A stretch of 64,000 nt of DNA, from assembly GCF_003334815.1 (NCBI RefSeq), contig NZ_QOWO01000008.1, one strand, 5' to 3'. Below the pieces are notes generated by a model, which was not told where the DNA came from, ran no database searches, and was given only the letters and a program-made list of their open reading frames with translations. How positions within the stretch are numbered: the first letter of the stretch is position 1; each line of letters starts with the position of its first letter. The DNA is from Escherichia coli (GTDB lineage: Bacteria; Pseudomonadota; Gammaproteobacteria; Enterobacterales; Enterobacteriaceae). Of this stretch, positions 57,640 through 60,948 are shown one piece after another. Both the position numbers and the translations under genes were made by a program.

Positions 57640-59241
57640 TCAGGATACCACTGGCGCAATTTGTAACTGCACCGACTCATGTCGTGCTACTTCATGTTCT
57701 TCAAGGGTAAATACCGCCACACGCGACGAAAGATGGTCGGCCTGATTCGCCAGTTGTTCCGTTGCCACCGCCGCTTCTTCTACCAGCGAGGCGTTCTGCT
57801 GAGTCACCTGATCCATCTGGCTGACAGCCTGTGCAACCTGCTCAATCCCCCGCTGTTGTTCTTCCGACGCAGAGGCAATTTCTCCCATAATGTCGTTCAC
57901 GCGGGTCACCGAACTGACAATATCGATCATGGTCGCGGCGGCGTTATTCACCAGTTTCGAACCCTGCTGGACACGATTGACTGACTCTTCGATCAGCCCT
58001 TTGATCTCTTTTGCTGCCTGCGCGCTACGGCTGGCAAGATTGCGCACTTCACCTGCCACTACCGCAAAACCACGCCCCTGCTCTCCGGCGCGAGCCGCTT
58101 CCACTGCCGCATTCAGGGCCAGAATATTGGTCTGGAAAGCAATTCCGTCGATAACGCTGATAATGTCGCCAATTTTTTGCGAGCTGGTGGCGATCTCCTG
58201 CATGGTGTGAGTCATGGTACTGACCTGAACACCGCCCGCCTGCGCCGTTGTCGCGGCATTTTTTGCCAGTTCCGACGCCTGTCGTGCGTTATCGGCGTTT
58301 TGCCCTACCGTGGCGGTTAATTGCTCCATACTGGCGGCCGTTTGTGCCAGCGATGCCGCCTGCTGTTCGGTACGACTTGAGAGATCGTTATTGCCTGCGA
58401 CAATCTCCGCGATACCAATGTGCATCTCCTGGCTTCCCTTACGCACATCACTTACCGTCCCACGCAAAGCCTGCTGCATGGTCTTCAGACTGGCAAAAAT
58501 GGCGGTGATCTCATTACGACCATATACCGCAATCGGACGCGCCAGATTACCCGCAGCAATGCTGTCAAAATGGCTACCGATAATGGCCAGTGGTTGAACA
58601 ATCATCTTGCGCGTCCACCACAGCGCACTGCTGATGTAGATCGCCGCAACAATAATCATGCTGATAAACACCAGTGCCGAAATCTGATAGTTACGCTGGC
58701 TTTGCGCACTGGCGGCTTCCAGCACATGGTTGATCTCCAGCTGCCAGGCCTCAAAGTTAACGTCAAACGCATTCTGTGATCCCTGCACCGGCGCAGTGAG
58801 GAAATCCGAAAGTTGATTACTTTCAAGCCAGGTCGCCTGATGTTCGAGATCGTTGTGCCAGCGGGCAAAACTTTTCTCCGTCTCTTTTTGCAATCCCCTG
58901 ACGTGCTCGTTGCCCGCAGTCATCGCCATAAAACTTTTAAACAGCGTGGTGGATTGCGTCAGACTGGCGCGCGCCGTCGTCATCAACGTTTTAATGTCAT
59001 CCGCCGGATAGCTAAGTGCCGTCAGAGTGCCCGCTTTGTTCAGCGCGGTACTGGCCTGTAACATTACCGCCCGAGTTTGCGCTAATGCCGCACGTTGCTG
59101 ATTGCTCTGCTCGACCTGATTCAGTCGTTGCAAATCGTCGCGAAATGCCCAAAAAGACATGCCGTTACTGCCAATCTGCAAGATCCCGCAGAGAATCAAA
59201 ATTAAAAACAGCGTGGTCGAAATTCGAATACGATTAAACAT
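57640..59241 (-). CDS. tap: Methyl-accepting chemotaxis protein IV (dipeptide/pyrimidine) Tap, 533 aa
   Basis: ORF track 57640..59244; known start MFNRIRISTTLFLILILCGILQ; HAMP plus highly conserved MCP signalling domain; C-terminus lacks the NWETF pentapeptide. Confidence 0.92.
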   Translation of the reverse strand: MFNRIRISTTLFLILILCGILQIGSNGMSFWAFRDDLQRLNQVEQSNQQRAALAQTRAVMLQASTALNKAGTLTALSYPADDIKTLMTTARASLTQSTTLFKSFMAMTAGNEHVRGLQKETEKSFARWHNDLEHQATWLESNQLSDFLTAPVQGSQNAFDVNFEAWQLEINHVLEAASAQSQRNYQISALVFISMIIVAAIYISSALWWTRKMIVQPLAIIGSHFDSIAAGNLARPIAVYGRNEITAIFASLKTMQQALRGTVSDVRKGSQEMHIGIAEIVAGNNDLSSRTEQQAASLAQTAASMEQLTATVGQNADNARQASELAKNAATTAQAGGVQVSTMTHTMQEIATSSQKIGDIISVIDGIAFQTNILALNAAVEAARAGEQGRGFAVVAGEVRNLASRSAQAAKEIKGLIEESVNRVQQGSKLVNNAAATMIDIVSSVTRVNDIMGEIASASEEQQRGIEQVAQAVSQMDQVTQQNASLVEEAAVATEQLANQADHLSSRVAVFTLEEHEVARHESVQLQIAPVVS

Positions 59242-59286
59242 CAACGCTCCCCATCAGGCGGCAATGACCGCGTTAGTAAATACTCG

Positions 59287-60948
59287 TCAAAATGTTTCCC
59301 AGTTTGGATCTTGTTCAGCAATTCGCAGTCGTGGCTGAGCCGGTGGTTGCTCACTGGCAGGACGGGATGGTGTTTGCGGTTTATTGGTGAGTGGGCTGGC
59401 TGCCAGACGGAACGCGGAAACTGCTTGCGTTAAACGACTCGCCTGTTCTTCCAGCGCAGCGGCGGCGGCAGCTGATTCCTGCACCAGCGATGCGTTCTGT
59501 TGCGTGACGCGATCCATTTCCGAAACCGCCAATGCGACTTGATCGATGCCACGGCTCTGTTCATCCGATGCCGATGCAATCTCGCCCATAATGTCAGTCA
59601 CGCGAGTGACAGCATTGACGATATTGTTCATTGTTTCCCCGGCGCTTTCGACCAGCACCGAACCGGTATCAACGCGTGAGACGGAGTCTTCAATGAGGGC
59701 TTTGATCTCTTTTGCCGCCTGGGCGCTGCGACTGGCAAGATTACGCACTTCACCCGCCACCACGGCAAAACCACGGCCCTGTTCACCCGCACGCGCGGCT
59801 TCAACCGCGGCATTCAGCGCGAGGATATTAGTCTGGAAGGCAATACCGTCGATAACGCTGATAATGTCGGCAATTTTCTTCGAACTATCGGCGATCTCAT
59901 GCATCGTTTTCACTACGCCATCCACCACTTTGCCGCCGTGCTGGGCGGTGTCGGAGGCACTTTGCGCCAGTTGCGAGGCCTGGCGGGCGTTATCGGCGTT
60001 TTGCTTCACTGTCGCGGTGAGCTGCTCCATGCTGGCGGCAGTTTCTTCCAGCGCGGATGCCTGCTGTTCAGTACGGGAGGAAAGATCGGTGTTGCCCGCC
60101 GCAATTTCACGGGTACCGGCATAGATGGCATCTGAACCTTCGCGGACATGAGTGACGGTGTCAGTCAAAGAGCGTTGCATATGTGAAACGCTCTGCGCCA
60201 GGTCGCCCATTTCACTGCGCCCGTCAATGGTCAGGGTATTCGCCAGGTTACCACCGGCGATTTCGCGAATGTGAGCAATAATTTTTGCCAGCGGAGTAAG
60301 CAACATACGGCGAATGCCGTACCACGCCACCAGCAGAATCAATACCACCACCAGCGCGATAACCGCCAGTTGCCACTGGGCAAATCGGTAATCATCTGCG
60401 TTGTCAGTGACGATATCGCGATACAGTTTTTCACTGCTGAGGGCGTACTGAGCAAACGCTTCGCCCATTGCATTTTGCATTCCCTGGGTTGGCTGAGCGA
60501 AATAAGCTCCAGTATTGCCATAATCTAGATAATCAATCAGTTCAGTTAACGCTGTGTAATAGTTTTTATATTTTTCATCAATATTACGACTGGTAGCGAC
60601 CATTTCAGGTAACGGTGCCATGCTTTTGAATTTTTTATAATGCGTCGCTGCCTGCGCCAATGTTTTCCTGGCGCTATCGAGCAATTCAACTTTGGCGTTA
60701 CTTTGTTGATTGGAGGAATCCATCATCATCCGTACCGCTGAACGACTCAGGTTAATGCGCGTTTGCAGCATTAAATCCCAGGTTGACGTCAGCTCGCCCT
60801 GCTGTTCCCGTAATTGATTGGAAACCACAAAGCTCTTCTGGCTATGGTGAAGGGAAGAAAAAAACAGACTGCCGGAAATAAGCTGTAACAGTGCGAATAC
60901 CCCCAGCACCATTACCAACAGCGTGACTACGCGGATACGGTTAATCAT
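59287..60948 (-). CDS. tar: Methyl-accepting chemotaxis protein II (aspartate/maltose) Tar, 553 aa
   Basis: ORF track 59287..60969; known start [22 protein letters not shown]; C-terminal NWETF pentapeptide (CheR/CheB docking) present. Confidence 0.93.

Follow-up and report, generated by a model that had tools for sequence, protein, structure and literature searches.

The neighboring chemoreceptor genes tar and tap of Escherichia coli form a diverged direct repeat that has rarely recombined into hybrid receptor genes

The locus described here lies within a 64-kb stretch of Escherichia coli DNA (the window), and consists of two adjacent chemoreceptor genes that are both on the minus strand. The gene tap, for methyl-accepting chemotaxis protein IV (the dipeptide receptor), is an ORF at positions 57640..59241 that encodes 533 aa from its ATG. 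The gene tar, for methyl-accepting chemotaxis protein II (the aspartate/maltose receptor), is an ORF at 59287..60948 that encodes 553 aa, with its ATG at 60948. The gene order of the operon is cheW, tar, tap, cheR, cheB, cheY, cheZ. A prior reading of the DNA made without database searches (the sequence-only reading) had identified tar and tap as tandem paralogous MCP genes, and this was confirmed by comparison with NCBIfam equivalog models: Tap scored 1181.9 bits against NF007309 (MCP-IV, cutoff 903) and Tar 1200 bits against NF011622 (MCP-II, cutoff 900), with residues 1-533/533 and 1-553/553 covered, respectively. Both proteins have the Tar-type MCP architecture, that is, an N-terminal TarH four-helix bundle (Pfam; Tap residues 1-167, 9e-42; Tar 1-169, 2.9e-41), a HAMP domain (Tap 209-260, 2.6e-09; Tar 212-262, 5.8e-11) and a C-terminal MCPsignal domain (Tap 323-480, 5.7e-56; Tar 325-482, 5e-62). 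The identification is also supported by E. coli K-12 MG1655, in which the tap-to-tar stretch (1969383-1972691; tap is b1885 and tar is b1886) shows no difference from ours, and in which gene order, annotation and the presence of NWETF in Tar but not Tap are all alike. RefSeq uses the names tap and tar both in MG1655 and in 100%-identical genomes, and no evidence speaks against these identities. MG1655 is a very close relative more widely, with 9 differing positions in the first 50 kb of the window. The feature is the textbook neighboring chemoreceptor pair of E. coli, ordinary and already known, and finding it taught us nothing new about the window.

The two genes are separated by a 45-nt spacer (59242..59286, minus strand) in which GGGGAG precedes the tap ATG as its ribosome-binding site. 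A scan of this spacer revealed no promoter-like or terminator-like match, which is consistent with co-transcription of the two genes. Upstream of tar, at 60980..61006 on the minus strand, is TAAAGTTT-N11-GCCGATAA, an exact match to what we take to be the consensus of the FliA (sigma-28) promoter. A terminator-like hairpin, with a 10-pair stem and then TTTATTT, is located just past the cheW stop codon (61041..61067, minus strand).

Translation of the C-terminal ends bore out a difference that had been noted from the sequence: Tar ends in QDPNWETF, with the NWETF codons at 59290..59304 (minus strand), and Tap ends in QIAPVVS, with no counterpart of the pentapeptide. NWETF is the docking site of CheR/CheB and is present on high-abundance receptors only (PMC4692393). 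In the MG1655 paralogues, Tsr also ends in NWETF and Trg ends in SFATV. Applying the class definition of PMC4692393 to these sequences alone, Tar and Tsr are assigned to the high-abundance class by the presence of NWETF, and Tap and Trg to the low-abundance class by its absence.

The sequence-only reading had also claimed that tar and tap form an internal direct repeat about 1.7 kb apart. Such a repeat is present, and its copies, 1701 nt apart, align with no gaps. Copy A (57760..58419) spans the signaling domain and methylation helices of tap (Tap residues 275-494) and copy B (59461..60120) the same parts of tar (Tar residues 277-496), with 72.3% ungapped identity between them; over 57740-58420 the value in the same register is 71.7%. 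A repeat finder reported two direct-repeat segments, both 1701 nt apart, at 57770-58069/59471-59770 (73%) and 58232-58416/59933-60117 (74%). The identity of ~72% across the signaling domain is above 65%, the floor the earlier claim had set for itself. Identity is highest in a 180-nt core at the hairpin-tip region (58000..58179 in copy A), which is 85% identical to 59701-59880, and the best 60-nt window of the repeat is 90% identical. The longest exact block is 24 nt (58145..58168 in tap and 59846..59869 in tar; Tap 358-366, Tar 360-368), followed by blocks of 18 nt (58286..58303 and 59987..60004; Tap 313-319, Tar 315-321) and 16 nt (57999-58014). The two copies have no k-mer of ≥25 nt in common, and the only directly repeated 20-mers in the whole window, five in number, are all inside the 24-nt run. 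The domains had been described as sharing near-identical stretches. That description stands for the proteins, in which 56 consecutive residues of the hairpin-tip region are identical (Tap 359-414 and Tar 361-416), but not for the DNA, which is 72-85% identical. Outside of the signaling domain there is little resemblance: the ligand-binding halves share 20% amino-acid and 39% nucleotide identity, and the whole genes in register share 50% nucleotide identity.

What maintains this similarity was assessed by comparing tar and tap with tsr and trg, taken from MG1655, over Tar residues 270-510. An old duplication probably gave rise to the tandem genes, after which the ligand-binding halves would have diverged almost to randomness. 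The signaling hairpins would meanwhile have been kept nearly constant through protein-level selection, because Tar and Tap share one CheA/CheW array and one set of CheR/CheB enzymes and have to remain compatible with both. The 660-nt, 72% DNA repeat would then be a passive by-product of protein constraint, neither recently homogenized nor mobile. The alternative that survives best, itself very improbable, is concerted evolution, in which tar and tap, owing to their adjacency, would have undergone repeated gene conversion that homogenized their signaling domains. In its favor, the copies are adjacent and direct, their core is locally 85-90% identical, and tar-tap crossovers do happen (see below). 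Against it, identity by codon position in the repeat is 84/85/48%, and over Tar 270-510 tar and tap are 70% identical in nucleotides and only 46% at third positions, whereas tar and tsr are 77% and 52% identical. Although tsr is 2.6 Mb from tar, it is closer to tar in the signaling domain than the neighbor tap is, and we therefore see no sign of gene conversion. The remaining MCP pairs have 63-69% nucleotide and 39-43% third-position identity. Third positions are about half identical between tar and tap and likewise between unlinked MCP paralogues, and the silent-site similarity of tar and tap does not exceed that of the unlinked tar and tsr: among codons for the same amino acid, the identical fraction is 0.51 for tar-tap and 0.53 for tar-tsr. 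In 20-codon windows third-position identity ranges from 0.25-0.70, and it is just 0.35-0.40 within the block of 100% amino-acid identity. The length of the 24-nt run is also within expectation under codon-column shuffling (P=0.08). On the basis of the paralogue comparison and the shuffle we rejected gene conversion or concerted evolution. The genes tsr and trg have the same conserved signaling domain, with 63-77% nucleotide identity to tar or tap, and so form the same kind of "repeat" with unlinked partners; as they are not next to tar/tap, crossing over between these genes and tar or tap would produce a chromosomal rearrangement rather than a simple 1.7-kb deletion.

The repeat had further been proposed as a substrate for recombination or deletion, and natural fusions show that it is one, albeit rarely. 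A synthetic deletion-junction query was searched against 5426 complete E. coli genomes, and single-piece matches were obtained in three, ET474, PEC389 and ETEC4088. In these genomes a 1701-nt deletion has left one 1608-nt gene (535 aa), annotated "tar", between cheW and cheR. The hybrid protein begins with Tar sequence up to residue ~364 or ~318 and continues as Tap to residue 533, and it lacks NWETF. In ET474 and PEC389 (hybrid A) distinguishing sites are of tap type to 58144 and of tar type from 58169, placing the crossover within the 24-nt block, and in ETEC4088 (hybrid B) the switch comes after 58285, still of tap type, and before 58304, already of tar type, within the 18-nt block. When the repeat recombines, the junctions thus land on the longest blocks of perfect identity. 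The source isolates are wild, from frog and pig faeces. The two hybrid A genomes may share one event, and independent events are established for two only; in natural E. coli, hybrids have formed on two or more occasions. As many as four more genomes have the flanks without the segment between the repeats and are possible undetected hybrids, which would bring the total to at most 7/5426. The direct orientation and the deletion junctions inside shared sequence support the repeat as recombinogenic at low frequency, and with three of 5426 complete genomes carrying a hybrid it is a very weak recombination substrate. For the reciprocal tandem duplication, no single-piece match to a synthetic tap-tar junction was found, the top matches being ordinary genomes in two joined pieces. 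The best match to that junction, in H56, proved to be a tap gene truncated in association with IS1.

We considered whether the hybrids in the three genomes are assembly collapses driven by the repeat instead of real deletions, which we regard as even less probable than concerted evolution. In favor of a collapse, each junction falls precisely within an exact run common to both genes, at which an assembly graph built with small k might conceivably jump from one copy to the other. However, the runs concerned measure no more than 24 and 18 nt, the genes have not one 25-mer in common, and the longest run is below typical assembly k-mers or reads. Moreover, NCBI, ENA and Logan assemblies contain these two hybrid proteins on 71 and 28 contigs, respectively (140 and 58 blocks of the collection in a contig index), and the hybrid A locus is identical over 5 kb in two complete genomes of different countries and hosts. 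In 24 of 24 contigs read for each hybrid the context was intact, cheA-cheW-hybrid-cheR-cheB, on contigs up to megabase length. We rejected an assembly artefact in view of this recurrence in independent assemblies, and the hybrid alleles are well supported as real. The warning that the repeat can confuse assembly was, by the same evidence, not upheld.

Overall, we are highly confident in an explanation that combines old tandem paralogues, a repeat held in place by protein constraint, and rare crossover at exact blocks to give hybrids. With the two copies in direct orientation and near each other, the 24-, 18- and 16-nt exact blocks may occasionally support crossover or slippage, by a pathway that could be RecA-dependent or could be slippage. 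Such an event would delete 1701 nt and fuse the N-terminal part of Tar in frame to the C-terminal part of Tap, giving a receptor without NWETF. The hybrid receptor would likely have the ligand specificity of Tar and adaptation of the low-abundance type, with dipeptide taxis lost. Laboratory Tar-Tap hybrid transducers, with the N-terminal sensing half of Tar and the C-terminal signaling half of Tap, were reportedly described by Slocum, Halden and Parkinson in 1987 (J Bacteriol), and laboratory Tar-Tap hybrids are likewise said to feature in work of Weerasuriya, Schneider and Manson in 1998 (J Bacteriol), both papers being cited for functional chimeric receptors. These are the same fusion of Tar sensing to Tap signaling as in the natural hybrids, but their origin is laboratory construction or selection, and the present alleles come from wild isolates. 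A phrase search of a limited literature set found no paper on a tar-tap fusion, hybrid, chimera or deletion.

It is conceivable, if rather unlikely, that, in certain E. coli lineages associated with animals, hybrids arising via the 18-24-nt blocks recur as alleles and may be adaptive. If true, a single event would end dipeptide sensing and turn the aspartate receptor into one of the low-abundance type without NWETF, after which Tsr alone among the receptors would still carry the docking pentapeptide for CheR/CheB. The label "tar" on the hybrid genes conceals the loss both of Tap and of the NWETF tether. More generally, the locus provides a small quantitative illustration of how nearly inert an operon-internal direct repeat of 660 nt and 72% identity can be across E. 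coli diversity.

Loss of tap is far more common by a deletion that is unrelated to the tar/tap repeat. In about 20% of complete genomes a tap remnant is present between tar and cheR, making this the commonest natural variant of the locus. The common deletion removes 1374 nt wholly inside tap (about 57749-59122), leaves tar intact, and is bounded by an 8-nt microhomology, CCTGATTC, at 57741..57748 with its other copy at 59115-59122. The ~1,060 genomes that matched at 71% coverage were initially candidates for tar-tap recombinants, and were found by alignment to carry this intra-tap deletion. Size variants 81 nt and 222 nt shorter near the repeat were also found to be intragenic microhomology deletions, not tar-tap exchanges. 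Passages in PMC3559539 and PMC12623472 that cite Lane et al. 2006 and Borziak et al. 2013 describe tap loss in phylogroup B2/uropathogenic E. coli, which concerns the same locus by a mechanism unrelated to the repeat.

When the 64-kb window was plotted against itself over all offsets in 300-nt windows, the check proposed with the original claim, the 1701 diagonal was the sole outlier, with 78% identity in its best 300-nt window versus ≤45% on all of the other ~63,000 diagonals (99.9th percentile 39%), a match far beyond chance. The notion that the similarity is a chance or compositional artefact of GC-rich coding sequence, which has nothing in its favor beyond the modest identity of the whole genes in register, is refuted by this plot, and also conflicts with a similarity that is in frame and varies over codon positions as it does between homologous coding sequences, and with the matching of the same Pfam domains by both proteins. 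The plus strand opposite the two signaling domains has antisense shadow ORFs with no sign of coding, one of 106 aa over tap (57890..58210) and one of 192 aa over tar (59546..60124). The near-identical antisense peptides that had first drawn attention to the repeat were found in both of these ORFs, which have one 30-letter peptide in common.

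Self-comparison of the window at every offset, in 300-nt windows, gave a single outlying diagonal at an offset of 1701 nt (78%, all others ≤45%), and the two direct-repeat segments returned by a repeat finder both had this spacing. The diagonal corresponds to the signalling-domain regions of tar and tap, which the sequence-only reading had proposed to form an internal DNA repeat. Computed ungapped in the 1701-nt register, identity was 71.7% over the range of that proposal (57740-58420), above the 65% below which it was to be given up, and 72.3% between the copies at 57760-58419 and 59461-60120, rising to 85% in the core (58000-58179) and 90% in the best 60-nt window. 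The N-terminal halves of the two genes were only 22-30% identical in most 60-nt windows. Two shadow ORFs on the plus strand, at 57890-58210 and 59546-60124, contain the antisense peptides that had been pointed out, and the C-termini differ as described, Tar being closed by NWETF and Tap by APVVS. NWETF is the docking site of CheR and CheB and is confined to high-abundance receptors (PMC4692393). The identity figures, dot-plot, peptides and C-termini together confirm the observation; its wording as “near-identical” holds for the protein (56 consecutive identical residues, Tap 359-414 and Tar 361-416) but not for the DNA. The next-best diagonals (offsets 690, 1065 and 1761; 41-45%) start at 6227-6731 inside letB (5767-8400, plus strand), and tandem MCE domains of letB may be the source of these signals in the region ~6200-8000.

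That Tar and Tap are adjacent homologous transducers is established, and the repeat is an already known, ordinary feature. The genes lie on the minus strand within a region (53.3-64 kb) that reads, in transcription order, motB (end), cheA, cheW, tar, tap, cheR, cheB, cheY, cheZ and flhB. Tap (57640-59241; 533 aa from ATG) matched the NCBIfam equivalog model for methyl-accepting chemotaxis protein IV (1181.9 bits, cutoff 903) and Tar (59287-60948; 553 aa) that for MCP-II (1200 bits, cutoff 900), and both have the Pfam domains TarH, HAMP and MCPsignal. Only 45 nt, ribosome-binding site included, separate the genes. Upstream of tar, an exact minus-strand match (61006-60980) to the sigma-28 consensus, TAAAGTTT-N11-GCCGATAA, marks a putative promoter, and a terminator-like hairpin (61041-61067, minus strand) stands between it and the end of cheW, which it directly follows. 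The tap-to-tar stretch has no differences from MG1655 1969383-1972691 (b1885 and b1886), and several RefSeq genomes with the same annotation match it and its surroundings at 100% identity over 4.7 kb. Window positions 1-50000 differ from MG1655 1911744-1961743 at nine single positions (e.g., 5564, 7352 and 13952), so the source is very closely related to K-12 but need not be the reference sequence itself.

Gene conversion was rejected as the source of the tar/tap similarity. Repeat identity at codon positions 1, 2 and 3 was 84%, 85% and 48%, a pattern that indicates old paralogues kept alike by protein-level selection. Third-position identity in 20-codon windows ranged from 0.25 to 0.70 and was 0.35-0.40 within the block of 100% amino-acid identity. 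In codon alignments over Tar residues 270-510 that included the unlinked tsr and trg from MG1655, tar-tap nucleotide identity was 70% (third-position 46%), that of tar-tsr, 2.6 Mb apart, was 77% (52%), and that of the other MCP pairs was 63-69% (39-43%). Because the unlinked tar-tsr pair is the closer one, adjacency has not homogenised tar and tap. The longest exact run, 24 nt, also fell within the ordinary range when codon columns were shuffled (P = 0.08).

This 24-nt run (58145-58168) is followed in length by runs of 18 nt (58286-58303) and 16 nt (57999-58014), and it supplies the only directly repeated 20-mers in the 64-kb window. With no longer exact word in common and at most 90% identity over any 60 nt, the repeat would offer nothing to collapse in a modern assembly, and the suggestion that it can confuse assembly is not supported.

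The same reading had named the repeat a substrate for recombination or deletion. Window 57100-58100 was joined to 59802-60802 to give the junction expected of such a deletion, and among 5426 complete E. coli genomes this query matched as an uninterrupted single piece in three: ET474 (frog faeces, China), PEC389 (swine, Korea) and ETEC4088 (swine, Belgium). Each has one 1608-nt gene, annotated simply “tar”, between cheW and cheR (2041-3648 in the loci extracted from NZ_CP100954.1, NZ_CM168012.1 and NZ_CP122629.1). The products, of 535 aa, have the N-terminus of Tar and the C-terminus of Tap, without NWETF, and the strains have no tap. When all sites distinguishing tap from tar were scored, ET474 and PEC389 (hybrid A) were of tap type through 58144 and of tar type from 58169 onward, so that crossover occurred within the 24-nt block; ETEC4088 (hybrid B) switched between 58285 and 58304, within the 18-nt block. 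The mildly interesting by-product is wild E. coli with Tar-Tap fusion receptors made at the two longest identity blocks. Functional Tar-Tap chimeras are established, reportedly through the work of Slocum in 1987 and Weerasuriya in 1998. A phrase search, with limited literature coverage, turned up no description of such hybrids as natural alleles, and we make no claim of newness.

That the hybrids are assembly artefacts was rejected, because the two exact proteins are recorded on 71 and 28 contigs (NCBI, ENA and Logan), and the context cheA-cheW-hybrid-cheR-cheB-cheY-cheZ was constant in 24 of 24 contigs inspected per hybrid. A contig index placed them in 140 and 58 collection blocks, and hybrid A occurs on at least two flanking haplotypes, with 13 SNPs between them across 6.6 kb. 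The hybrid genes in the databases are true alleles. In one hybrid-A carrier (GCA_907172595.1, locus positions 4127-4986), a 1-nt indel splits cheR into ORFs of 210 and 89 aa, which may be a sequencing error or may mean that the adaptation system of this isolate has decayed further.

The repeat therefore recombines, yet it is a very weak substrate. The segment necessarily lost in any tar-tap crossover (59125-59440) was present in 5382 genomes, and a synthetic junction query built from flanking sequence matched 5389, which limits hybrids to at most seven genomes, three of them confirmed. Since the two complete hybrid-A genomes do not differ over 5 kb, no more than two events can firmly be counted as independent. 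No genome matched the junction of the reciprocal duplication in a single piece. For efficient exchange through RecA, E. coli is said to require perfectly matched stretches of about 25 nt, and mismatches inhibit the process strongly; the rarity of tar-tap exchange would fit this requirement.

Other deletions were observed at the locus. Coverage of the 4.7-kb query was just 71% in about 20% of the complete E. coli genomes; in an aligned example (NZ_CP160125.1, locus positions 2216-2367), 1374 nt are gone, all within tap (~57749-59122), and tar is intact. Four further sampled genomes of this class had an identical 3326-nt span. The deletion is bounded by an 8-nt microhomology, CCTGATTC (57741-57748 and 59115-59122), and this common tap pseudogene is independent of the tar/tap repeat. 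It matches the Tap loss published for uropathogenic and phylogroup B2 strains, as described in PMC3559539 and PMC12623472, which cite Lane 2006 and Borziak 2013.

Rarer variants were also seen. In strain 2023CK-01509 (NZ_CP141736.1, locus positions 1789-3691), IS1A lies beside argS and abuts a truncated tap, kept from 58052 onward; the strain therefore lacks all sequence from 3' tap, through cheR-cheZ, to the flh genes as far as argS. An in-frame 81-nt tap deletion (window 58282-58362; NZ_CP047658.1, locus ~2177-2182), with CGCCTG microhomology, leaves a 506-aa product in which the first methylation helix is short of ~27 residues; at least five genomes carry it (LD39-1, 30COLEC, NCTC9066, LR-33 and FDAARGOS_1250). 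An in-frame 222-nt tar deletion (window 59568-59789; NZ_CP141196.1, locus ~3450-3468) lies between imperfect 19-nt repeats (CCACGGCyCTGTTCAyCCG) within tar and removes the hairpin-tip region. It was seen in strains 673 and 472, with PI24 added from a matching alignment span only, and its 479-aa product is annotated merely as “Tar ligand binding domain-containing protein”.
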